Position numbers and translations under genes: made by a program. From IMG/VR virus record IMGVR_UViG_3300048016_000310: 64,000 bases of DNA, one strand, 5' to 3'. The stretch's first letter is position 1. Each line of letters begins with the position of its first letter. This DNA comes from a virus. Its lineage: Duplodnaviria; Heunggongvirae; Uroviricota; Caudoviricetes. Below are positions 19,043 to 63,867 of this stretch, in pieces. The notes below the pieces were generated by a model that was not told the DNA's origin, did no database searches, and saw nothing but the letters and a program-made list of their open reading frames with translations.

Positions 19043-19113
19043 AAATAAAAATGAGATTCGAACTCATATCTCTGAATTCTTAGTTCAGTGTAATACCATT
19101 ATACTATATTCCC
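19043..19113 (-). tRNA. tRNA-like gene (71 nt), possibly degenerate. Clean anticodon arm (loop CTAAGAA, anticodon AAG) but poorly paired acceptor stem.
   Basis: D-arm GTAT-AATGGTA-TTAC, anticodon arm CTGAA-CTAAGAA-TTCAG, T-arm ATGAG-TTCGAAT-CTCAT. 5-prime GGGAATA versus 3-prime TTTTATT pairs at only 5 of 7 positions. No encoded CCA. Confidence 0.4.
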
Positions 19114-22109: not shown

Positions 22110-22171
22110 AAGATAAAATTGATTAAGTAAATAATTTTTAATCAAAAATAGAAGTAACTTAATCATAATAG

Positions 22172-22242
22172 TGCAGAACCTAGGATTCGAACCTAAAGTT
22201 TAAAAATTCCCTTTTACGTGTTGCCATTACACCACTTTCTGC
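22172..22242 (-). tRNA. tRNA-like gene (71 nt). Anticodon loop appears 6 nt (GGGAAT). Isotype unresolved.
   Basis: Acceptor GCAGAAA/GTTCTGC (one mismatch), D-loop TAATGGCA with GG, anticodon stem TAAAA/TTTTA, T-arm TTAGG-TTCGAAT-CCTAG. No encoded CCA. Confidence 0.45.
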
Positions 22243-23771: not shown

Positions 23772-24314
23772 TTATTTCTTTACGTAAAGTCTTTGAAGAA
23801 AATAAATGCTTTTAGGCAATTCTAAAATACTAACTCCTAGCTTGTTTTCAGGATGATAAGGATTTGGTTCTATACTTTTTACAGTACCTAACAATCTTAG
23901 TTTAGAAGGACTTACTTTTTTATAAACCACATCACCAGGTGCTAATTCTTTCTGAATAAATAAAGATTTATGTAGGAAAGTATTATTAGTTGGTCTAAAA
24001 GGTTTATCACCATTTCCTTTATCTTCATTACAAGTTTTACACATTGGTTGTAGATTATCTAAAGTATTTGGTCCTCCTTTAGATTTGGGTAAGATATGAT
24101 CTATAGTAAATGCATTACCTTCATCATCATACAAATCTAAATGTTTACCTCCACGTTTATCTTCTCCTAATGCAAGATGAGTTCCTACTTTTCCACAGGA
24201 AACACAAGTACATCCTTTATAAAAAAATACTTGTAATCTCCTGTGTTTTTTAAAATTTTCTAAAGCAGCTAAAGGTAAAGTTTTTAAAATCTTATACCCA
24301 AAGTTTTGTCTCAT
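23772..24314 (-). CDS. HNH endonuclease
   Basis: CVSCGK...FTIDHILPKSKGGPNTLDNLQPMCKTCNEDKGN (DH...N...C..CN..K HNH core). Confidence 0.7.
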   Translation of the reverse strand: MRQNFGYKILKTLPLAALENFKKHRRLQVFFYKGCTCVSCGKVGTHLALGEDKRGGKHLDLYDDEGNAFTIDHILPKSKGGPNTLDNLQPMCKTCNEDKGNGDKPFRPTNNTFLHKSLFIQKELAPGDVVYKKVSPSKLRLLGTVKSIEPNPYHPENKLGVSILELPKSIYFLQRLYVKK

Positions 24315-26404
24315 CCTATTAGCTCTAAAGTTTTTTGATATGAATATCTAAAGTCTTCCTCTTTGAAGAAAGTTTCAGCTTCATCCAAAGAACTAACTTG
24401 GCCTCTAGCTTCTACATGTAATCGAATTAAATCGTAGACTGAAAGCTTAGGTGGCTCACAATAAGGCTTTAACTCATTTAACAAAGCAGAAGCATCACCA
24501 GAACCAACAGTTCTTTGAAAGATATTCCAGTCTAAGTCTAAATGAATATACTCTCTTGTTTCCAAGTCATACATTCCTACTAAACAATACTGAGCTTCTG
24601 AGTTTAATCTCATTGCATTTGTTACAGAAGAAGGAGTCCATGAAGAGTTTACCAAAGCATCATCTCTTTCCATAAAACCTGTATAGCAATCATTTAAAGA
24701 AGAGAATGGTTTTTGTTGAAAATTATGCAAAACCATGACAAAGTACTTAAATCCAAAAGCAACTGCTTTCTCTACATCAATATCTACATATTCTGCACAA
24801 GCACCTCTTCTACGTCTTACATCTCCTGAATAACAACCATAGTTAGCTCTTTTTTCTCCATTAAATCCAAACTGTGTAGCTCTTTTACCTTCTGCTAAAA
24901 GAAAACCATGCATATCAATATCTTCTGAACCTTGAACATCATTCCAATGAACAAATGGACGAATAACTCTTTTAGTTACACCCATAGCAATTCTTTGCCC
25001 TCTCACAACTGGAACAAGAGATTCTGACATTGACCTCATATTGGTAGGTAGTGGTATGTTTTTAAGATTTTCATCTATCCAACATTTACCCATAGCTGGA
25101 AGTTCAGCATATTTACGAGCTAAAGCATCCCAAATAAATCCACTACAAGTATCAACAACTTCTTGAGACAAAGCTTTCAAATCTGGCAAAGGAGTTCTCT
25201 GCCTAGCACCTTTAATAAAGATACTTCTATTTTGAACAGGCTTAAGTCTTTCTTGAAAATGTCCAAAAGCTTCAAACAAAACTTTAGAAGAAGTCTTATC
25301 TACATTCTTCAAAAGAGCATCAAAGATGATGTTAATCTTCTTAGGGTTCTTACGAACAAGTTCATCAAGTCTACGAATAAATACTCCAGGTCTCTCTGCA
25401 AGTCTTAAAACTCCAGCTTCAAAAGAGGCTTTAAAATCACTCTCTACCAATGATTGCCATGTTCTAACTTTAGGTACACCAGTAGGTTTACTTTTCCGTA
25501 ATTGATTACGAAGAGTAAAGGCAGCTTGGAAAGTCTTAGGATGAGTCTCTTTATGAGCTTGCACAACAAGTACTTCAAATAATCTAATCCATCTTGAGTA
25601 CTTTGAACCTTGTTGCATATCTCTTATATCAAGATTAGAAGACTCAAGCAATTGAAGAACTCTAAGTTTTTGAGCAGAATTAAGCTTAAATCGAAATGCT
25701 TTACGCTCTTCTTCTCTAGCAGCCCATTTAGGTCCTTGTTTCTTTAAAGATTTAGGAACAGCAGGTAATGAAACATCTCCACCAGAAAATCCAACAGCTA
25801 CTCTAAGACAATCAGTTACAGTCTTCACTGTGAAAGTAGGACATAAAGCAGCTATAACAGCTAAGTTTTCTTTGAATGGAATATCTTTAGGATACCTACA
25901 TTCATAGCCTGACTCTACCCACCACTTGATAACTTTAGTATCAGTAGGAGTTAAAGAGTTTCCTACACTAAGTAAGCGAGTGAAAATTGCTAGAAATTCA
26001 TCTTCAGTACAAGGATACACTTCTTTGTAAGAAACATGCTCAAAACCTTCAATCTTTTGTTTACCATAAGGCTTAAAGGTTTTTACACCCCAGTAATGAA
26101 GTAATTGATTCATGTATAATTCCTGCAAGGATTGAGACATTACATCTTGAGGGAAATTTTTGTACAACGATTGAAAATCGAGCTTTCCTCCTGTTTGAAT
26201 CTTGAGCCAATTTACAGTTTCATTATAGAACTTAATGATTTCAGCTTCTTCTGCTTTTTGAAGCATTTCAAATGCCTCCTGCGTTAGGAGAAATCCGTAG
26301 TGCATCAATTGTCCTTGACAAGACATAGCTAAAGCTAGATTATTCTGGCCCGAATCTGTAAAATTGACTAGAAATTTTTGTAATAATATCGTGTTCTTAG
26401 TCAT
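24311..26404 (-). CDS. large protein with C-terminal TerD-like domain
   Basis: 697 aa. C-terminal segment DIDMHGFLL...FGFNGEK...YSGDVRRRRGACAEYVDIDV resembles TerD-family blocks (DLDLSAFLL...VFFNQ...HSGDNxxGxGDGDDExIxID). Confidence 0.4.
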   Translation of the reverse strand: MTKNTILLQKFLVNFTDSGQNNLALAMSCQGQLMHYGFLLTQEAFEMLQKAEEAEIIKFYNETVNWLKIQTGGKLDFQSLYKNFPQDVMSQSLQELYMNQLLHYWGVKTFKPYGKQKIEGFEHVSYKEVYPCTEDEFLAIFTRLLSVGNSLTPTDTKVIKWWVESGYECRYPKDIPFKENLAVIAALCPTFTVKTVTDCLRVAVGFSGGDVSLPAVPKSLKKQGPKWAAREEERKAFRFKLNSAQKLRVLQLLESSNLDIRDMQQGSKYSRWIRLFEVLVVQAHKETHPKTFQAAFTLRNQLRKSKPTGVPKVRTWQSLVESDFKASFEAGVLRLAERPGVFIRRLDELVRKNPKKINIIFDALLKNVDKTSSKVLFEAFGHFQERLKPVQNRSIFIKGARQRTPLPDLKALSQEVVDTCSGFIWDALARKYAELPAMGKCWIDENLKNIPLPTNMRSMSESLVPVVRGQRIAMGVTKRVIRPFVHWNDVQGSEDIDMHGFLLAEGKRATQFGFNGEKRANYGCYSGDVRRRRGACAEYVDIDVEKAVAFGFKYFVMVLHNFQQKPFSSLNDCYTGFMERDDALVNSSWTPSSVTNAMRLNSEAQYCLVGMYDLETREYIHLDLDWNIFQRTVGSGDASALLNELKPYCEPPKLSVYDLIRLHVEARGQVSSLDEAETFFKEEDFRYSYQKTLELIG

Positions 26405-29172: not shown

Positions 29173-29250
29173 AGTACTAAGCTCATCCAAAGAGACTCGA
29201 ACTCTTAATCTTCCTATCACCAGGATAGGTGTTTTACCAATTAAACTATG
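29173..29250 (-). tRNA. tRNA-like element with non-canonical anticodon loop (CCTGGTG; TGG, Pro-like?)
   Basis: D-arm GTTT-AATTGGTA-AAAC, anticodon stem CCTAT/ATAGG, T-arm AAGAG-TTCGAGT-CTCTT, acceptor TCTTCCA/TGGATGA (one mismatch). No CCA. Confidence 0.3.
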
Positions 29251-29293
29251 GAAGAAGATAGGGATTCTAAGCGAATCCCTCTTTAACACAACA

Positions 29294-56218: not shown

Positions 56219-58537
56219 ATGAACGGAATTTTTGGACAATTAGACCAAAGTTTTAAAGCAGTCTGGGTTTCAAACTCAGGTTCAGTAGCTAGAGGGATTC
56301 TTCACAGTCATTTAGGACCAGAGCAGATTGCAATCTTTGCAGCTGATAACTACTGTGCTTTGGATGAGCAAGTATCTTTATCTGCTCCTAACTTTAAAAC
56401 CAACAAAAGACTTATTATTAAGCAAGGTTTGCATCCTTTTGCAGGACAGACAAACACTTTCCTTTCAAGACAAGATTCTAAGCCAAGACAAACTTTCGAG
56501 TTTGAAGCTTCAGATATTATTTCTTGGAAAGGAGAAAAAGCAAGAAAAGGTGCTAGACCTGAAATGGTAGCAATTGGTTATGATGGTTTAGATGCTTCAA
56601 GAACTCTTGGAGGAACTTTAGATGCAAAACCTTTGCACGTAAACATTAGATTATCAGGAGAGCCTATCAAAAGATTCTTCCACAGAAATTTTATTGACCA
56701 CAGATTTGTAATCGACAAAAACTTGTGCCTTGGTGCTTGTGACTGTTTTGATGCTTGTGGTAATGTTCCAGCAGACTTAATTGCTGATGCTGTTATTAAA
56801 CACTTCGAAACTCAAGAACTATTTGTTCCAGGTGGAAATGGTGGATTCTACAGAGCTCCTCTAAGACAATTTGTTAAGGCAAATAAAATCAAAAAATGTA
56901 CAGATGCTTTGGTATCTCCTACATTGATTGAAGTGAAAAAATGGACTATCTCTATTCCTGATGATGGAAAAACTACAATTGCTTTATTGCAAGCTGAGTA
57001 TCCTGCATATAAAATTACGCTAGAGTCTAGAATTGATGGTGTTTCTACTTATGCTTTCTGGATGCAAGAAGGTGCTGTAATTAACGAAGTTTCTACTTTG
57101 ACAGTTACAACAGGTGTAACTACTACTACTGCAACTATTACAGTTAACGTAAATGGTACTGCTTACACAACTGCAAGTATCACTTCAGGTGCAGACCAAA
57201 ATGCGGTAGCTCTTGCTATTAAAACTGCAATTGGTTCATCAGCAGCAAACGTAGGTGGTGTAGTGACAATAACTGGTGTTGGTGCAGATACAGATACGTC
57301 TGTTACTACAAATACAACAGGTTTAGCAGTTACAGCAGCTACTACAACTCAAGGGGATAACAGTGGCTTTATTGCTCCAGCTGATTTCACAATCACTAAC
57401 CACGTACAACCTATTTGCGATACATGTCCTACATGTCCAGAGGCTTATACTGAAGTAGTAGGTTTAAGAGTTGTACAAGTAAGAAAAGCATTTGGAGCAG
57501 CAGCACCTACTATCACTGGTAGTGTATCATCTGTGAAAATGTCATCTTCACTTGCAAATGGAGATGTTTACATCATCAAAGTTCCTTTGGCTACTTCTGA
57601 TACAACTATCTCAACTGACTTAGGTGTTTCAGCAGAATATCAAATTTTAGGAACAGAATCAAAAAGTTGTGTAGGTTCTACAGCAACATTTGAGTGGGCT
57701 AACTGTGATGAAAGTAGATTCAAAACTACTAAGAAATTCATGATTACTCTACCTGACACAGATTGTGAGCAAGGTGAGTCAAGATTGGCTGAATTACAAG
57801 CTGCATATCCTACTTTGGTTATTGCTGACTTGGCAGAAGGTTCATGTTTACACTCATACGAGACAACAGTAGAATCTGACATGGTAGCACCAGAAGACTG
57901 TGACAGACTTGTAACATATAAATTCAAGCAACCAGCTGGATTTGAAGGATACCAATGGGTAGATTTCGTAACTCCAGTAACAGAGGTTGATTGTACTGTA
58001 CCAACAGCACCAACAGTGCCTTGTTGTGTAGCAGGTGTTATCTTGGAGACTGCATGGTGGGATTCTAAAACAGGAGAATGTACTTACGGATGGAGTAACT
58101 GGCATCCAAATAACAAAAAGCCAGTAAGAATTCAAGTAAATATTCACTCTTTGGATTATTCAAACAATCCTTGTGATGAAACTAAATACTACTCTACTAT
58201 TATTCAGAAGCTTGCTATGGATATGGGAACTAGTGGTGAAGTGGTTCAAGAATATGAAAGAAACTTTTTACTATATGAAAACAAATATTGGTCTTCAAAT
58301 CCATATGTTAATGACATTGATGGTTTTGTAATGACTGCTAAAGCTCACTTGTTGTACGACCAGTACACTTTGAGACTGAAAAGAAGACAATATGGAAACT
58401 CTTATATGTTGAAAGACCAAGGAGCAGTAGACTACATATTCTACGTTCCAACAGGAGAAGGAAAAGACCTAGAGGGATTAATCAACGAGTTGGTTCTTTC
58501 AGCAGGAAATCCTGACCTAACAGCAGTGTATCTGTAA
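56219..58537 (+). CDS. large structural protein (possible tail sheath or fiber) with a Thr/Val/Ala-rich beta segment
   Basis: 772 aa. Central TTGVTTTTATITVNVNGTAYTTASITSG... low-complexity beta-rich insert. Followed by a terminator. Confidence 0.35.
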   Translation: MNGIFGQLDQSFKAVWVSNSGSVARGILHSHLGPEQIAIFAADNYCALDEQVSLSAPNFKTNKRLIIKQGLHPFAGQTNTFLSRQDSKPRQTFEFEASDIISWKGEKARKGARPEMVAIGYDGLDASRTLGGTLDAKPLHVNIRLSGEPIKRFFHRNFIDHRFVIDKNLCLGACDCFDACGNVPADLIADAVIKHFETQELFVPGGNGGFYRAPLRQFVKANKIKKCTDALVSPTLIEVKKWTISIPDDGKTTIALLQAEYPAYKITLESRIDGVSTYAFWMQEGAVINEVSTLTVTTGVTTTTATITVNVNGTAYTTASITSGADQNAVALAIKTAIGSSAANVGGVVTITGVGADTDTSVTTNTTGLAVTAATTTQGDNSGFIAPADFTITNHVQPICDTCPTCPEAYTEVVGLRVVQVRKAFGAAAPTITGSVSSVKMSSSLANGDVYIIKVPLATSDTTISTDLGVSAEYQILGTESKSCVGSTATFEWANCDESRFKTTKKFMITLPDTDCEQGESRLAELQAAYPTLVIADLAEGSCLHSYETTVESDMVAPEDCDRLVTYKFKQPAGFEGYQWVDFVTPVTEVDCTVPTAPTVPCCVAGVILETAWWDSKTGECTYGWSNWHPNNKKPVRIQVNIHSLDYSNNPCDETKYYSTIIQKLAMDMGTSGEVVQEYERNFLLYENKYWSSNPYVNDIDGFVMTAKAHLLYDQYTLRLKRRQYGNSYMLKDQGAVDYIFYVPTGEGKDLEGLINELVLSAGNPDLTAVYL

Positions 58538-59436: not shown

Positions 59437-59814
59437 ATGTCTAAATGTAGGGAATGCCTTGGGGAGAGTACTACTCCAGAATGTATCGAACTTGAAGGAA
59501 AGTATGATAATCTTGGTAAACTTCTACCAAGCCTTATCGCTTTAGTAGCCAAAGATGAAGCTCCTTTGAAAATAGATACAAAAACTCTGACTTCTAAAAA
59601 GTTGACCAGAGATGAAATTATTCAGCTTCTAATAAATGAAGTAATTATTTTAAAAAAAAAGCTGAATGAAACACAAACTGTTATAAACACAAATGGCTTA
59701 TGTCCAAATGTCAATTGGGATATGTTAAATCAATGTATGCCAGGAGATGCTTCATTTTGTGATAAATTGCAGAATTTAATTAACATCGTATATCAAATAA
59801 ACAACAATGTGTAA
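59437..59814 (+). CDS. hypothetical Cys-rich protein
   Basis: 125 aa with 8 Cys. Confidence 0.35.
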   Translation: MSKCRECLGESTTPECIELEGKYDNLGKLLPSLIALVAKDEAPLKIDTKTLTSKKLTRDEIIQLLINEVIILKKKLNETQTVINTNGLCPNVNWDMLNQCMPGDASFCDKLQNLINIVYQINNNV

Positions 59815-60295
59815 CTGCAAAAAACCTTGTGGCAACTGCCACTCACATAAACCTCAACCTTCTTTAGATTGTTTTGAACCTTGTGATTTAGAATTGTATG
59901 ATGCAAAAGATGTCAGATATAAAACAAAACCAGATGAAGTATCACAGCTTTTAAATTTGGGGATACATAAAGGAGAACATCTTGAATACATTCTTGAATT
60001 GTTTGGTCAGATGTTATATAATGTCAAGTATATTGAATCTCCTAGAGTTGCAGGACATGACCTTTTAAATACTTATGAAAAAATCATTCATTATTTATTT
60101 CAAAAGAATTCTGATTTAGAAGATTTACTAGAAGCTCAAAGTTCTAACATTGAAGATTTAACAGCAGAGCTAGTTATAATCAAAGCAAATATAGAAAAAT
60201 TAAAGTATCCAGAAGTAACAGACGACACCAATATTGGTTTCTTATCTGGTGACTCTCTAGAAACAATTTTACAAACAATTATAAATAATCAATAA
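59807..60295 (+). CDS. hypothetical Cys-rich protein
   Basis: 162 aa. [12 protein letters not shown]-terminus. Confidence 0.35.
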
Positions 60296-60297
60296 AA

Positions 60298-61680
60298 ATG
60301 AGTCATGGATGTCAAAAATGTATGAGGAAACCCAAATGTACTTGTAAAAGAGTATGGGAACCTGAATATGAAGTTGGTTGCACAGAAAAGATAGACTCTA
60401 AATGTGTAATATACAGACCCGAAGGTGGGTCGTCCCTAATAAAAGATTTTATTGGGATTAATACTAGAACTTCTATAGAAGTAATTTTAGAAACATTTGA
60501 CTCTAAATTAGCTTCTCTATTCCTTTTAGAACTTACTCAATGTTCTAGAGATTTATTAGATTTACCTCAAGTAACTAATGTTAAGTTGGCGTTGTCAAAA
60601 CTCTTAGACCATGTGTGTGTTCTACAAGATAAATATGTGAAAGTAACTAGCTCAGATACAGCAGCTGGATTTCTTTACAACAAGATTACAACAGGAGAAT
60701 GTGTTCAAAAAAGAACTGTAACTGATCTTACAGGAACACAAACTTTAGAGATTTATCTTGACTATGAATGTATAGCTGCGAAATTACCTACTGTAATTGA
60801 AGTTAACTGTTGCAACCAAGGATTTACTATTGAGACATCTACAAATGAAATTTGTAACTCTACTCTAGCTACTCTTACTGCATACAACTGTTCTGATACT
60901 GTAGTATGGTATAAAAATGGAATGATTATTGGAACTGGAAATACTTATACTGGTGGAGTTGGTAACTATTATGCTAAATGTGGAAGCATTCAGTCTAATA
61001 CAATTACTGTATCTGCTTGTAGCTGTGAGCCAGTATGGTCTGATAAAATTCCAGTAGAGATTTATTGTGGAGCTGTTATAGACCTAGACCCTTGTAAACT
61101 ATGGATAAAACAAAGTAATCAATGTAATAACCTTACTCAATGGGTTGAATACACAGGTTCTGGTTCTATCAATGCTTCACAATGTGATGGTTGTGTACAA
61201 ACACCAACTCCAGTCCCTGTACCTGTTCCAGTACCAACACCTACACCTACTCCAACTCCGACACCTGTTCCAACACCTGTCCCAGTTCCAGTACCTGTAG
61301 GTAGTCCAACACCAGTACCTGTACCAGTGCCTACACCAACACCTGTGCCTACTCCAGTGCCAGTTCCTGTTCCTGTTCCCACTCCTGTACCAGTGCCTGT
61401 ACCTACTCCTACACCTACCCCTGTTCCAGTTCCTGTAACTTTGGTTACTTATTGGGAGATTCAATCTTGTCCTACAAGTGGTAATGGAATGGATAGTGGA
61501 ACCAAAACTACTGACACTGATTTAACTGGAGAGATTACCAACCAAAGAGTAACAATAGGTTCTAATGAGTATCACTACTTAGGAACTACAGTTAGCTCTG
61601 GAACTATCCCAGGAAACTTTGTAGCTGGAACTGCAACTATAGTATCAGGTCAAACAGGATGTAGTGAAATTATACCTTAA
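60298..61680 (+). CDS. Cys-rich structural/adhesin-like protein with a ~80-residue (P-T/P-V)n linker
   Basis: [31 protein letters not shown]... encoded by imperfect tandem DNA repeats at 61195-61440. N-terminal domain has more than 20 Cys. Confidence 0.5.
61195..61440 (+). repeat. imperfect short tandem repeats encoding a Pro-Thr/Pro-Val linker
   Basis: Reiterated cc(a/t)gt(a/g)cc(t/a)(g/a)(t/c)(a/t)cc units visible in the sequence. Confidence 0.6.
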
Positions 61681-63215
61681 TGAAAACTTTACATTTTGAC
61701 TTATATCAAAATCAAAAAGTAGGAATGTCAAACGTAGTGATGAGTGCTGAGAATGCACTCATCATTGCTTTTTTGACAAAAAGAGACAAGATTATATTCT
61801 ATGGAAATGAGTTTTTATTTAACTCTCAAACCAAAAGAATACAAGATTTATATACCATCCTATTTGATGTAGAATTTAAAGAAGCTTCTGAGAAGCCTAG
61901 CGTAGATTCTCTCCCTTCAAACTTCTATGATACTGTCTTTTATTATCAGCAAGAACCTAATGCGAATTTTATAAATAAAAGAAAGTCTTGTATAGATTTA
62001 AAAAAGTGGGAAGATAAAGAAGAATTTTCTACTTTAAATAATGAAACTCTTGGGTATTATTCTTACTTGTTTTATCTTGACCAAGAGCGTATCCCAATCT
62101 TAAATAGACTAAAAGAAACATTCTTTCCAAAGCTAGAATATCAACAAAAAGCCAAAGATATAGTAGATAGTATAAATAGCTTATATGCAGGATTTAATTC
62201 TGTACATGTTCGTAGAGGGGATTATCTTCACACTTCTGCTGAAAATAAAAACATCACAGCTCAAGATTTTCTACCAGTTTTAGAGGAACATTTAGAACAA
62301 GACAAACTTTTGTTAGTACATACTGATGAACAAGATTTATCTTACTTTCAGGTAGTAAAAGAAAAGTATCCTAATATTTGGTTTATAGATTCTGTAATCA
62401 CAGGAGATACTGCTGAAAGAGGATTAATTTCAATGCTTGTAGCTTCTTTCAGTGATAAGTTTATAGGAACAATGAAATCTACTTTTACTGGTTTAATTCA
62501 ACGTTATCGAATTTATAATGGAAAGTTAGAAGATTTTATATTCTTGTACTCTCAGCTTGCTAACATTAGCTTGGAAAGAGGTATGTTTAAAAAAGAATCT
62601 TTTGCTCAATATGCTTGGAATTATTCTTATCTTACTCCAGAATTTAAACAAATTGCTTTTTGGATAAGAGAGTTTGAAAGCTGCTATCCTCAAGAGAGAT
62701 ACCCAGTTCAGGCTTTAAGAATTTATCCTAACTTTATTACAACAGAAGAATCTTCATACATTATAGAAAAAGCAAAAGCAAACACATCAGAGTATTACGA
62801 AAGAGAAACTAGAAATAGATTTATTCTTGGTAGGACTGACCCTGTAGCTAAAGCAATTATGGAACGTTCTTGTGAAGCCTTGGGTTATGATGTAAATAAA
62901 ATTGAATCTTCTATACAAGTATTTACACAATATAAAGATGGTCAGACTTTCTGGCATATGGATTCTCTAGCTCCTGATTACCAAGGGTTAAGAATAGCAA
63001 GCATCTTGTTTTATCTGAATGAGGATTTTAGAGGTTCTAAAATTGAATTCCCTTTTCTGGGTGTAACTTGGCAACCAAAGAAAAACACAATGCTTTCCTA
63101 TCCTCTTGTAAATGAGTTTGGAGAGATGAATAAGTTAACAAGTCATTCAGCAAGTATAATAACAGAGGGCACTAAATATATGTGCTACTTTGACATAAAA
63201 GAAAAAAATTACTAA
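61680..63215 (+). CDS. fusion protein: N-terminal GT11/GT23-like fucosyltransferase-type domain plus C-terminal prolyl-4-hydroxylase-like 2OG-Fe(II) oxygenase domain
   Basis: N-terminal HVRRGDY, the signature motif of alpha-1,2-fucosyltransferase / O-FucT families. C-terminal WHMDS (HxD) ... RIASILFYLNEDFRGSKIEFP (P4H-type R/S/YLN/F.GG.I.F block). Confidence 0.55.
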   Translation: MKTLHFDLYQNQKVGMSNVVMSAENALIIAFLTKRDKIIFYGNEFLFNSQTKRIQDLYTILFDVEFKEASEKPSVDSLPSNFYDTVFYYQQEPNANFINKRKSCIDLKKWEDKEEFSTLNNETLGYYSYLFYLDQERIPILNRLKETFFPKLEYQQKAKDIVDSINSLYAGFNSVHVRRGDYLHTSAENKNITAQDFLPVLEEHLEQDKLLLVHTDEQDLSYFQVVKEKYPNIWFIDSVITGDTAERGLISMLVASFSDKFIGTMKSTFTGLIQRYRIYNGKLEDFIFLYSQLANISLERGMFKKESFAQYAWNYSYLTPEFKQIAFWIREFESCYPQERYPVQALRIYPNFITTEESSYIIEKAKANTSEYYERETRNRFILGRTDPVAKAIMERSCEALGYDVNKIESSIQVFTQYKDGQTFWHMDSLAPDYQGLRIASILFYLNEDFRGSKIEFPFLGVTWQPKKNTMLSYPLVNEFGEMNKLTSHSASIITEGTKYMCYFDIKEKNY

Positions 63216-63216
63216 T

Positions 63217-63867
63217 ATGACAATAAAAGATGTTGTATCAACTATAAAGAATAATCTGAACTTATTAAATTTAGATTCAAAGATTTCTAATCAATTCGTC
63301 TATTCACTTGCTGTGAATATAGCAAGCTTTTTGATAAAAAGAGAAGCAGAGTATAAAAGACTATTTAAAAATACTTCTGTATTTAAGAAACTAGATTGTG
63401 TAGAAATGGAAGAAAGATCTCTACTAGAATGTGGTGTAAACCTTGGATGTAGGACTATTATGAGAAGCAAAAAGCCTTTACCTAAAACGTTCTTGTCAAA
63501 CTTTGGTTCTGTTATACAAATATTTAATATACTAAGAGATAAAGATTATAAAGAGATTTCTGCTACAGGATATAAGACTATGATGCAGCAAAAATTTAAA
63601 TCTAGAAATACTAAGTATTTTTGGATAGAAAATGATTATCTTTACGTCCCAGATTCAGAAGTAGAAATTTTGATTGTTTTGGGGTTATTTTCAAACCCAG
63701 AAGAAGTTATAGCATTTAATGGTGGTTGTGATAAACTTTTAGACTTTCCCTTCCCAGCTCCAGATTATTTACTACAACCAATCATCGAACAGACACTTAA
63801 ACAACTAAGTATCAAACTTCAGATTCCAGAAGATGAAAATAGTAATTTAAATTCCAATTTAAAATAA
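63217..63867 (+). CDS. hypothetical protein
   Basis: 216-aa ORF. Confidence 0.4.
   Translation: MTIKDVVSTIKNNLNLLNLDSKISNQFVYSLAVNIASFLIKREAEYKRLFKNTSVFKKLDCVEMEERSLLECGVNLGCRTIMRSKKPLPKTFLSNFGSVIQIFNILRDKDYKEISATGYKTMMQQKFKSRNTKYFWIENDYLYVPDSEVEILIVLGLFSNPEEVIAFNGGCDKLLDFPFPAPDYLLQPIIEQTLKQLSIKLQIPEDENSNLNSNLK

Follow-up and report, generated by a model that had tools for sequence, protein, structure and literature searches.

The 64,000-nucleotide stretch of viral DNA analyzed here (the window) encodes a two-domain enzyme in which a fucosyltransferase (FucT)-superfamily GT-B glycosyltransferase (GT) is joined to a prolyl 4-hydroxylase (P4H) of the collagen/algal type; both activities are predicted. 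The enzyme gene follows that of a Cys-rich, fiber-like virion protein with a long alternating-proline tract (Table 1), and the locus belongs to a Crassvirales structural module. Comparative genomics suggests that phages may make hydroxyproline (Hyp)-linked sugar coats on fiber tracts, and we consider it somewhat probable that the enzyme described here hydroxylates, and then glycosylates, the tract of the adjacent fiber-like protein. According to this proposal, the C-terminal P4H would use Fe(II), 2-oxoglutarate (2OG), and O2 to convert prolines of alternating (X-Pro)n tracts to 4-hydroxyproline, and the N-terminal inverting GT-B domain, closest to POFUT2, would then place a host-made nucleotide sugar, most likely GDP-fucose or a related 6-deoxyhexose, on the same tract, most probably at the new Hyp hydroxyl and possibly at Thr as well. 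The substrate would be the co-translated fiber-like protein and its counterparts in related phages, and the modified 78-residue tract would form a stiff glycosylated spacer, comparable to those of mucins or arabinogalactan proteins, that keeps the small, conserved C-terminal domain at a distance from the virion. The domain identities, the conservation of active-site residues, the coupling of the two genes, and the co-occurrence of enzyme and tract across phages are observed; that the tract is the substrate, which reaction comes first, and which sugar is attached and how are inferred.

Table 1 Features of the enzyme-tract locus in the window
Feature	Position	Strand	Details
Upstream Cys-rich member of the fiber-like gene set, no tract	59807..60295	+	162 aa; BLASTP relatives
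Cys-rich fiber-like virion protein, probable substrate	60298..61680	+	460 aa, 24 Cys; synteny orthologs
(Pro-Thr/Pro-Val)n tract, proposed hydroxylation/glycosylation target	61204..61437	+	aa 303-380, 78 residues
Conserved C-terminal domain of the fiber-like protein	61450..61674	+	aa 385-459; 71-73% identity in L082 and L084 despite differing middle
TAATG stop/start overlap of fiber and enzyme genes	61678..61682	+	TAA 61678-80, ATG 61680-82; one-base overlap
Bifunctional enzyme	61680..63215	+	511 aa; predicted POFUT2-like GT-B glycosyltransferase + collagen-type prolyl 4-hydroxylase fusion
GT-B fucosyltransferase-superfamily domain	61680..62684	+	about aa 1-335
R178-R179-G-D181 of HVRRGDY	62211..62222	+	unchanged across 30 aligned homologs
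Prolyl 4-hydroxylase-type 2OG/Fe(II) oxygenase domain	62712..63212	+	about aa 345-511
H426-M-D428, predicted Fe(II) ligands (HxD)	62955..62963	+	invariant in 26 fusions; aligns with HxD of B. anthracis P4H
H489 (predicted third Fe ligand) to K499 (predicted 2OG-binding Lys)	63144..63176	+	both invariant
crAss tail Ring protein 2 (Ring2)	63217..63867	+	PF25702, E 7.4e-22; phrog_9863, virion structural protein

Domain architecture and distribution of the enzyme

The two ORFs exist exactly as given in the preliminary description of this DNA, and the GT-P4H fusion that it proposed is borne out by sub-threshold Pfam matches, by profile matches to PDB sequences, and by fold matches of an AlphaFold model with a pLDDT of 90.6. 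The enzyme scores 21.4 bits against O-FucT (PF10250), below the gathering cut-off of 31.5, and 23.5 bits against 2OG-FeII_Oxy_3 (PF13640), below the cut-off of 27; precomputed PF13640 matches are found in four homologs and PF10250 matches in most, and a related protein from locus L012 (compared loci carry L numbers) reaches 73.6 bits against O-FucT. When compared with PDB sequences, the family profile matches P4Hs (B. anthracis, 2e-10; PBCV-1, 5e-6) and POFUT2/POFUT1 (1e-5) and no others, and aligns the HVRRGDY region to POFUT2. In a Foldseek search with the enzyme model, the best 32 matches are all P4Hs, followed by AtFUT1, POFUT2, and FUT8. The P4H half has a double-stranded β-helix fold nearest to known P4Hs, the best being collagen, algal, and viral enzymes that act on Pro-rich repeats; the best structural match is an algal P4H, Cr-P4H-1, with a bound (Ser-Pro)5 peptide. 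The GT half has a GT-B fold nearest to fucosyltransferases, with POFUT2 closest. Matches in PHROG also point to the P4H and O-FucT families. The preliminary description had allowed that the N-terminal half might belong to an unrelated fold and its HVRRGD match be fortuitous; both the profile and the fold matches of this half are to fucosyltransferases.

Residue conservation is consistent with this assignment. The N-terminal HVRRGDY motif lies at residues 176 to 182, and N18, R178, R179, and D181 are invariant in 30/30 homologs; this Arg motif (HxRRxD) is the GDP donor-phosphate-binding and catalytic motif of the FucT superfamily. The oxygenase block comprises H426-x-D428, R438..S441, Y445-L-N447, H489, and K499, each invariant in all 26 full-length homologs, such that the HxD, RxS, and YLN motifs named previously stand; the segment given as FxGGxIxF actually reads F-R-G-S-K-I-E-F. 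In the comparison of the family profile with PDB sequences, H489 and K499 correspond to the distal His and Lys in B. anthracis P4H, and K499 is at H+10, the spacing of the 2OG-binding Lys in collagen-type P4Hs. DNA hypermodification by paired 2OG oxygenases and GTs is known from phages, and a weak match (E 0.003) to a PHROG family annotated as "DNA endonuclease" would fit a pair that modifies a nucleic acid or a small molecule, in the manner of TET/JBP-type oxygenases and their GTs; we find this extremely improbable and set it aside on the basis of the fold ranking.

The fusion family is small, with 26 clusters at 90% identity; a profile search aimed at P4H-GT pairs gave 4,026 matches. A genome contig scan found the fusion in none of 185,579 species genomes, and a metagenome contig scan returned only GT-only relatives, from high-GC contigs. 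Against GenBank phages, Megablast with the region gave no match and tblastn gave distant single-domain matches only. Fold matches in BFVD were likewise restricted to single domains (best TMq 0.37); we therefore know of no viral two-domain homolog.

The fiber-like protein, its tract, and the structural module

The fiber-like protein consists of a conserved N-terminal region, the (Pro-Thr/Pro-Val)n tract, and a conserved 75-residue C-terminal domain. Pfam searches assign it to no family and reveal neither an EGF nor a TSR domain, and a word search of 5.8 billion proteins with its nonrepetitive 300 residues found only the protein itself. Orthologs, located through synteny rather than sequence search, are encoded by the genes that immediately precede the fusion in L084 (76% N-terminal and 73% C-terminal identity) and L082 (43% and 71%, respectively), and L029, L030, L085, and L002 have tract-bearing proteins that share the N-terminal ≈160 residues. 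Both orthologs retain the two end domains around tracts of very different length and different inserted modules, in keeping with an earlier expectation that linker length would vary. The gene immediately upstream in the window encodes a smaller Cys-rich protein whose BLASTP relatives (L083 165-698, 9e-11; L001 4895-6115, 4e-8; L030 2265-3542, 1e-6) are genes of the corresponding variable block in related phages.

The preliminary description is correct in reporting a Cys-rich protein with a (Pro-Thr/Pro-Val)n tract; the tract is 78 rather than ≈80 residues long, and is not uninterrupted, since a single Gly-Ser breaks it (38 Pro, 23 Val, 15 Thr, 1 Gly, and 1 Ser). It is preceded by C-D-G-C-V-Q-T, and a CxxC motif lies within 12 residues upstream of the tract start in 16/32 tracts across loci. 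An alternating-Pro tract of this length is beyond the reach of chance, and (PX)≥5 is absent from 49 control crAss-like structural loci. At the DNA level the tract is, as also proposed previously, an imperfect tandem repeat (periods of 6 to 30, with 69-87% matches), its Pro codons are CCT (20) and CCA (16), and the phage encodes a tRNA-Pro(UGG). As a separate observation, two related lineages, L030 and L085/L086, have CTA codons at positions where homologs have Pro, which makes CTA a candidate for sense-codon reassignment in these phages (contigs Logan SRR12487029_1093 and ENA ERZ27249409 k141_832185); with a conserved 697-residue window protein as query, no match was found in the CTA-anomalous contig, and no match was Pro-depleted.

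Placement in a virion structural module, also claimed previously, is supported by the next gene, which encodes Ring2 and starts one base past the enzyme stop; this position identifies the locus as the tail part of the module. In crAss001, genes adjoining Ring2 encode tail-hub proteins, where fibers dock (PMC10172136). The window also contains a Crass_capsid match, and the syntenic loci L001, L002, L029, L082, and L084 share the order capsid ... fusion ... Ring2-Ring1-muzzle. The phage has a nearly identical relative of 160 kb (P0186). The TAATG junction that couples the fiber and enzyme genes is found in L082, L083, and L084 as well. Among the 66 other window ORFs, Pfam searches reveal no sugar-nucleotide or fucose-pathway gene and no other GT, so that genomic context gives no pointer to the donor sugar.

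Association of enzyme and tract across phages

In the crAss-like loci, (PX)n tracts occur in fiber genes beside the fusion in the window, L001, L002, L029, L082/L083, and L084, and tract-bearing fiber genes adjoin the enzyme in 6/8 crAss-like lineages as read, or in 8/8 if CTA specifies Pro in L030 and L085/L086. In 49 control loci anchored on Ring2, neither GT nor P4H nor tract is present. When all loci are counted, the figures are 10/18 versus 4/64 (Fisher p = 1.3e-5), a statistic that ignores kinship and is partly inflated by the common ancestry of the crAss-like loci. The arrangement is not confined to the fused form. In L006-L010 and L017, a tract protein, a P4H, and a GT are encoded, in this order, by separate adjacent genes with <30% identity; these split-gene phages are nonsyntenic and differ in gene order, and the P4H and GT genes are always immediately beside those of tract-rich virion proteins. 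That the tracts are ordinary flexible linkers unrelated to the enzyme, with co-occurrence arising from shared descent and chance, is in our estimate very improbable: Pro-Thr linkers are frequent between domains of secreted bacterial proteins, the fusion-bearing crAss-like loci are kin, and four lineages with both P4H and GT (L003/4, L005, L012/13, and L031, the last with only 1.8 kb upstream) have no tract within ±10 kb, but neither the controls (0/49) nor the recurrence of immediate adjacency in nonsyntenic phages is readily accommodated by it, and we set this explanation aside on the strength of the 49 control loci.

Several loci carry additional enzymes. L010 encodes a PF11397 protein (1.3e-25) together with an NAD-dependent sugar epimerase, and its second tract protein has a crAss muzzle C-terminal domain; PF11397 corresponds to GT60 (PMC6418280). 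In L012, the P4H gene is followed by one for a single protein with O-FucT (2.8e-20) and GT60 (5.8e-32) domains, and this pair lies beside a DNA polymerase gene rather than structural genes. The fusion homolog of L032 adjoins a protein that passes the Pfam thresholds for the hydroxyproline O-arabinosyltransferase (HPAT) family and LicD. Neither the multi-GT protein of L012 nor the HPAT-like protein of L032 matched any PDB sequence.

The lineages without a nearby tract bear on a further alternative, that the enzyme is directed at the host, for example hydroxylating a translation factor, as bacterial P4Hs do with EF-Tu, and fucosylating glycans or proteins of the host envelope to aid takeover or exclude superinfecting phages. 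The EF-Tu-modifying P4Hs of B. anthracis and Pseudomonas are among the structural matches (5v7y and 4iw3), the PHROG class of the GT is "moron, auxiliary metabolic gene and host takeover," and in L003, L031, and L012 the gene sits where two modules meet or within the replication module. We nevertheless judge a host target improbable, given that the position of the enzyme gene is conserved in a late structural operon with translational coupling to the fiber gene, that enzyme and tract are strongly associated, with recurrence in unrelated phages, and that the best P4H matches are collagen, algal, and viral enzymes of Pro-rich repeats.

Tract composition speaks to which residue might carry the sugar. 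The Ser+Thr share of the X positions ranges from 0.01 (L002, 158 residues of Pro-Val/Pro-Ile) to 0.76; Pro alone is constant across tracts, and Pro/Hyp is therefore the likely target. An alternative that we regard as rather unlikely holds that the two domains act independently on the same fiber protein, the P4H stiffening a polyproline-II spacer and the POFUT2-like domain O-glycosylating Ser/Thr, either the Thr of the tract or residues in Cys-rich domains. The closest GT structures are indeed protein O-fucosyltransferases that act on Ser/Thr in Cys-rich folds, such as the EGF and TSR modules modified by POFUT1/2; POFUTs normally modify such folded domains, and the window fiber protein has Cys-rich domains too, with 24 Cys, CxxC right before many tracts of this kind, and 15 Thr in its own tract. 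L002 and L029, however, share the fusion and yet have tracts with just 1-8% Ser/Thr at X positions, and the fact that P4H and GT are permanently fused, or stay paired where they are separate genes, suggests that the product of one activity serves as the substrate of the other. Sequential hydroxylation and glycosylation remains our preferred reading. We know of no Hyp-O-glycosyltransferase in the fucosyltransferase GT-B superfamily. Where GT60 co-occurs, the FucT-like enzyme may merely extend the glycan; the window lacks GT60, and an initiating activity of its FucT-like domain is therefore assumed.

Comparison with known hydroxylation and glycosylation systems

Hyp-O-glycosylation is, to our knowledge, considered a trait of eukaryotes, exemplified by plant cell-wall glycoproteins and by Skp1 in protists, and phage virion glycosylation has been demonstrated only recently, and without hydroxylation. 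Prolyl or lysyl hydroxylases are also known from giant viruses. A literature search found no paper describing a phage hydroxylase-glycosyltransferase system of this kind. We tentatively propose that tailed phages possess a modular cassette for the assembly of Hyp-linked glycans on (X-Pro)n fiber spacers, made up of a P4H and a POFUT2-like GT, fused in the window, to which a GT60 GT and a sugar epimerase are added elsewhere. Such a cassette would be the first case of Hyp-O-glycosylation outside of eukaryotes and giant viruses, and the POFUT2-like domain of the fused form would represent a new class of Hyp-O-glycosyltransferase. If true, Hyp-glycosylation chemistry would extend to bacterial viruses, with the acceptor made and used by one enzyme, and the two genes would provide a compact, easily tested system for making defined Hyp-glycosylated polyproline rods. 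The glycosylated spacer would then also give environmental crAss-like phages a surface trait with possible effects on host recognition, adhesion, or resistance to proteases, and, as the P4H reaction requires O2, fiber maturation would be tied to oxygen availability.

The closest individual precedents are found for each half separately. Compared with Cr-P4H-1, PBCV-1 vCPH, B. anthracis P4H, and human C-P4H, the window P4H is the C-terminal half of a GT fusion, is encoded by a tailed phage, and lacks a peptide-substrate-binding or PDI-type partner; its identity to known P4Hs is only about 20%, and its activity is a prediction. The GT shares ≈10-13% identity with POFUT2 and the FucT superfamily (GT68, GT65, GT37, GT23, and GT11) and differs from these in being fused to an oxygenase. 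Where the POFUTs act on a folded TSR or EGF domain, the window GT is presumed to use an extended (X-Pro/Hyp)n tract as its acceptor. The bifunctional lysyl hydroxylase-glycosyltransferases, human LH3/PLOD3 and mimivirus L230, hydroxylate collagen Lys, and their oxygenase domains are farther from that of the window enzyme than are P4Hs. The GT domains of LH3 and L230 are not known to be related to the GT-B FucT fold, and a lysyl hydroxylase domain with an LH3-type GT domain in one chain is not the architecture of the window enzyme; the likeness is one of shared logic rather than of homologous architecture.

As regards virion glycosylation, the mycobacteriophage GTs described by Freeman et al. 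in 2023 reportedly decorate virion structural proteins. That system is said to work without a hydroxylase, in an actinobacterial host, on capsid and tail-tube proteins at their Ser/Thr-rich C-termini, and with GT families unrelated to the window GT. In the Skp1 pathway of Dictyostelium and Toxoplasma, the P4H PhyA acts together with Gnt1 (GT60) and PgtA, which has an α-1,2-fucosyltransferase domain, and these GTs build a glycan on Hyp. L010 and L012 resemble this pathway in encoding a P4H, a GT60 (PF11397), and a FucT-like GT side by side; a Skp1-type cassette with GT60 next to the P4H is absent from the window by Pfam. Finally, in plant and algal Hyp-rich glycoproteins (arabinogalactan proteins and extensins, modified by P4H and HPAT/GALT), [Ala/Ser/Thr/Val]-Pro repeats are the classical Hyp-O-glycosylation modules. 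The window differs from these in lacking HPAT (GT95) and GT31 and in its prokaryotic cytoplasmic setting with no secretory pathway, but has in common with them the alternating X-Pro tract, and an HPAT-family gene adjoins the fusion homolog in L032.

Domain architecture and distribution of the fusion enzyme

Both open reading frames named in the preliminary description are present in the window as given there, with the HVRRGDY motif and the oxygenase block in place. The downstream ORF (61680–63215) encodes a 511-residue protein whose only Pfam matches are to the two families foreseen in that description, each below threshold: O-FucT (residues 155–279; 21.4 bits, cut-off 31.5) and 2OG-FeII_Oxy_3 (residues 415–501; 23.5 bits, cut-off 27). 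A profile of the enzyme family run against PDB sequences matched only prolyl 4-hydroxylases (P4Hs; Bacillus anthracis, 2e-10; PBCV-1, 5e-6; human C-P4H alpha-2; Chlamydomonas) and POFUT2/POFUT1 (1e-5 to 8e-3). AlphaFold modelled the protein with high confidence (pLDDT 90.6, pTM 0.87). Only P4Hs fill the first 32 places among its Foldseek matches in the PDB, one of them the algal enzyme with a bound (Ser-Pro)5 peptide; AtFUT1, POFUT2, and FUT8 rank next. On the basis of these profile and fold matches, we assign the C-terminal oxygenase half as a predicted collagen/algal-type P4H and the N-terminal glycosyltransferase (GT) half as a predicted member of the fucosyltransferase GT-B superfamily, nearest to a protein O-fucosyltransferase. 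That the target is a nucleic acid or a small molecule runs counter to this fold ranking and is extremely unlikely.

The P4H domain retains its active-site residues, and the FucT-superfamily GT to which it is joined retains its Arg motif. N18, R178, R179, and D181 are unchanged in 30 of 30 aligned homologs, as are H426, D428, H489, and K499 across 26 fusions; K499 lies 10 residues past the distal His, which is the spacing of collagen-type P4Hs. A search of 5.8 billion proteins returned these 26 full-length fusion homologs (37–100% identity; longest contig, 130 kb), four proteins of ≈322 residues consisting of the GT alone, and a further set of longer proteins sharing just the GT part. When 1.84 billion representatives were searched exhaustively with the profile, 104 matches reached E ≤ 1e-30, roughly a dozen of them clusters (50% identity) of full-length fusions. 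No fusion was detected in the 185,579 species genomes scanned, and BFVD contains no viral protein spanning both domains. One homolog, P0023, is found in cellular-looking surroundings (P450, FMO, sulfatase, luciferase-like), and the gene that follows it scores above the Pfam thresholds for the hydroxyproline O-arabinosyltransferase family and LicD.

Coordinates of features in the window and in compared loci (L numbers)
Feature	Source	Position	Strand	Remark
HVRRGDY motif	fusion enzyme	aa 176–182		
Oxygenase block	fusion enzyme	H426-x-D428, R438..S441, Y445-L-N447, H489, K499		
(Pro-Thr/Pro-Val)n tract	fibre-like protein	aa 303–380; nt 61204–61437		
TAATG junction	window	61678–61682		fibre-gene TAA stop overlapping enzyme ATG
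772-aa structural-module protein	window	56219–58537	+	no family assignment
697-aa protein	window	24311–26404	-	no Pfam domain
tRNA-Pro(UGG)	window	29181–29255	-	ARAGORN
tRNA-Leu(AAG)	window	19043–19113	-	ARAGORN
Third tRNA-like gene	window	22171–22242	-	ARAGORN
Extended cassette	L010	7451–15907		virion structural proteins, tract protein, P4H, FucT-like GT, GT60, epimerase/dehydratase, second tract protein
Gene pair	L012/L013	7196–11563		P4H gene, then 1032-aa O-FucT + GT60 protein
Cassette	L017	4646–10718		tract protein, at least two P4H paralogs, epimerase, GT; adjoins terminase and portal genes
Low-GC locus	L030	1–17926		Logan SRR12487029_1093; GC 23%
Low-GC locus	L085	1–18465		ENA ERZ27249409 k141_832185
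Methyltransf_21 (PF05050) gene	L030	5790–6374		immediately upstream of fusion
Methyltransf_21 (PF05050) gene	L085	9403–10020		immediately upstream of fusion
Methyltransf_21 (PF05050) gene	L086	563–1180		immediately upstream of fusion
Fusion homolog P0023	L032	10001–13145		Tara Oceans scaffold; GC 55%

Coupling of the enzyme genes to alternating-proline tracts

The window derives from an AT-rich crAss-like phage (GC ≈31%) to which no deposited phage genome is closely related. The upstream ORF (60298–61680) encodes a fibre-like protein of 460 residues with 24 Cys, in which 38 Pro, 23 Val, and 15 Thr, with one Gly-Ser break, form a 78-residue tract; the tract DNA is an imperfect tandem repeat, as had been noted from the sequence. 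The enzyme gene is tightly coupled in an operon with this gene, and the gene for crAss tail Ring protein 2 (Ring2; PF25702, 7e-22) begins one base past the enzyme stop. In L001, L002, L029, L030, and L082–L085, the syntenic crAss-like order runs from capsid through five to seven conserved structural genes (small or large) and a variable stretch of fibre-like, Cys-rich genes to the fusion, Ring2, Ring1, and muzzle. In crAss001, the neighbours of Ring2 are the tail-hub proteins where fibres dock (PMC10172136).

Orthologs of the fibre-like protein are encoded directly upstream of the fusion in L084 (identity 76% in the N-terminal 263 residues and 73% in the C-terminal 74) and in L082/L083 (43% and 71% at the N and C termini, respectively), and the TAATG junction is kept in each. 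Between these conserved ends, the length of the tract and the modules inserted vary strongly, in agreement with the variable-length spacer proposed in the preliminary description. The N-terminal ≈160 residues are found again in proteins with tracts from L029, L030, L085, and L002. Across lineages, alternating Pro is the sole constant of the tracts, the other position being V, I, T, S, A, Q, or L. Of 32 tract starts (window, L002, L006, L008, L009, L029, L082, and L084), 26 follow a Cys and 16 of the 32 have a C-x-x-C no more than 12 residues upstream; this pattern, common to crAss-like and unrelated split-gene phages, may mark either the edge of a domain or a recognition element.

Every fetched locus was scanned with HMMs of both enzyme halves and, by a single script, for (PX)≥5 tracts. 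In the window, L082/83, and L084, the gene directly preceding the fusion carries a tract, as does that in L001 in the form of short PT/PV linkers; L002 harbors a 158-residue PV/PI tract three genes upstream, and L029 has three tract-bearing genes, one adjoining the fusion. None of 49 Ring2-anchored control crAss-like loci contains a GT, a P4H, or a tract within ±10 kb. Over all loci, which are phylogenetically non-independent, a tract is present in 10 of 18 with both domains versus four of 64 others (Fisher p = 1.3e-5). No tract occurs within the DNA examined around the enzyme genes of L003/4, L005, L012/13, and L031.

A stronger pointer than these pooled counts is the recurrence of the tract arrangement where P4H and GT are separate genes of <30% identity in reversed order: in L006/7, L008, and L009/10, a large protein containing between three and seven (PT/PS/PA)n tracts is followed by P4H and then GT. 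In L017, two P4H genes, an epimerase, and the GT come after a tract protein. The enzyme pair associates with (X-Pro)n virion proteins across lineages. That the tracts are linkers unrelated to the enzyme, which the controls and this independent recurrence weigh against, is highly improbable. Gene position, coupling, and the tract association also weigh against action on host molecules, which we regard as quite unlikely.

Split-gene systems also include GT60, the polypeptide alpha-GlcNAc-transferase family to which the Skp1 Hyp-GlcNAc transferase Gnt1 belongs. The L010 cassette encodes a GT60 (PF11397, 1.3e-25), an NAD-dependent sugar epimerase/dehydratase, and a second tract protein carrying the crAss muzzle C-terminal domain. 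In L012/L013, the 1032-residue protein combines O-FucT (2.8e-20) with GT60 (PF11397, 5.8e-32), and the pair adjoins DNA polymerase, PHP, and PD-(D/E)XK nuclease genes, outside any structural module. PF11397 is the Pfam counterpart of CAZy GT60 (PMC6418280).

Predicted hydroxylation and glycosylation of the tract

The reading of enzyme and tract as one modification system is well supported computationally, as a prediction. The P4H would convert tract prolines to hydroxyproline (Hyp); their [Thr/Val]-Pro context in the window agrees with the plant P4H rule of [Ala/Ser/Thr/Val]-Pro. The GT would then glycosylate Hyp, and possibly Thr as well, using a host nucleotide sugar; no sugar-nucleotide gene was found in the window, so the donor would be host-made. 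Since the reaction requires O2, an aerobic host is implied. The expected outcome would be a rigid, glycosylated spacer in polyproline-II form bearing the conserved 75-residue C-terminal domain. Hydroxylation and Ser/Thr O-glycosylation might instead be non-sequential events on the same protein; Ser and Thr account for a fraction of 0.01 to 0.76 of the X positions across lineages, and in the PV/PI tracts of L002 and L029 Hyp would be the sole hydroxyl on offer. We consider this alternative unlikely, though not negligible.

Sequential hydroxylation and glycosylation of the tract would parallel the Skp1 and plant HRGP pathways, in which P4H action precedes Hyp glycosylation, and LH3 and mimivirus L230 resemble the fusion in combining a hydroxylase and a GT in one chain. 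The fusion nonetheless falls outside these families, its oxygenase being P4H and its GT FucT-like, and the window lacks GT60, GT95, and GT31. Phage virion glycosylation is on record in mycobacteriophages; a literature search returned nothing on phage prolyl hydroxylation coupled with glycosylation.

CTA codons in a low-GC lineage and other features of the window

In L030, L085, and L086, which come from different samples and assemblers (L085 and L086 versus L030), the fibre-gene tracts translate as (Leu-Thr/Val/Ile)n, e.g., (LT)26. CTA accounts for 74/78, 25/25, 10/10, and 9/9 of the Leu codons in these tracts, and the lineage makes little use of CCN codons. In a codon-by-codon comparison with homologs (34–41 gene-homolog pairs; 300+ aligned codons), CTA in L030 and L085 aligns with Pro in 43–47% and Leu in 7–10% of cases, whereas TTA, TTG, and CTT align with Leu (37–49%). 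In five control phages, CTA aligns with Leu (39–60%) and Pro is never among the top four residues. Well-conserved Pro columns of the enzyme read Leu in six of six cases in the fusion homolog P0019 and four of six in P0020. We read this pattern as a candidate for a naturally occurring sense-codon reassignment of CUA from Leu to Pro in a crAss-like lineage of 23–25% GC. No tRNA was found in the L030, L085, and L086 stretches examined, and a literature search found no report of such a CTA reassignment. If CUA is Pro, these phages also bear (PT/PV/PI)n tracts on either side of the enzyme gene. Their Methyltransf_21 enzyme may add a further modification step.

In the window, tract Pro is encoded by CCT (20) and CCA (16), and the phage tRNA-Pro(UGG) fits this high Pro-codon demand; the third tRNA-like gene has an abnormal two-base anticodon according to ARAGORN. 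The 772-residue structural-module protein, in which several segments are rich in Cys and a low-complexity stretch is rich in Thr, Ala, and Val (…TTGVTTTTATITVNVNGTAYTTASITSG…), is conceivably another glycosylation target. A GC-skew flip at ≈42 kb marks the start of the structural arm. The early or replication arm (1–42000, minus strand) carries an unusual Pfam set: adenylosuccinate synthetase, Tpt1/KptA RNA 2'-phosphotransferase, NADAR, NAPRTase, nucleoside 2-deoxyribosyltransferase-like, cREC_REC, polyA-polymerase head domain, nSTAND3, and SPFH/Band 7 proteins. The 697-residue protein of this arm is very widespread (380 homologs at E ≤ 1e-5), and one homolog, 94% identical, lies on a 160,096-bp contig that is probably a near-complete genome of the window phage or a close relative.
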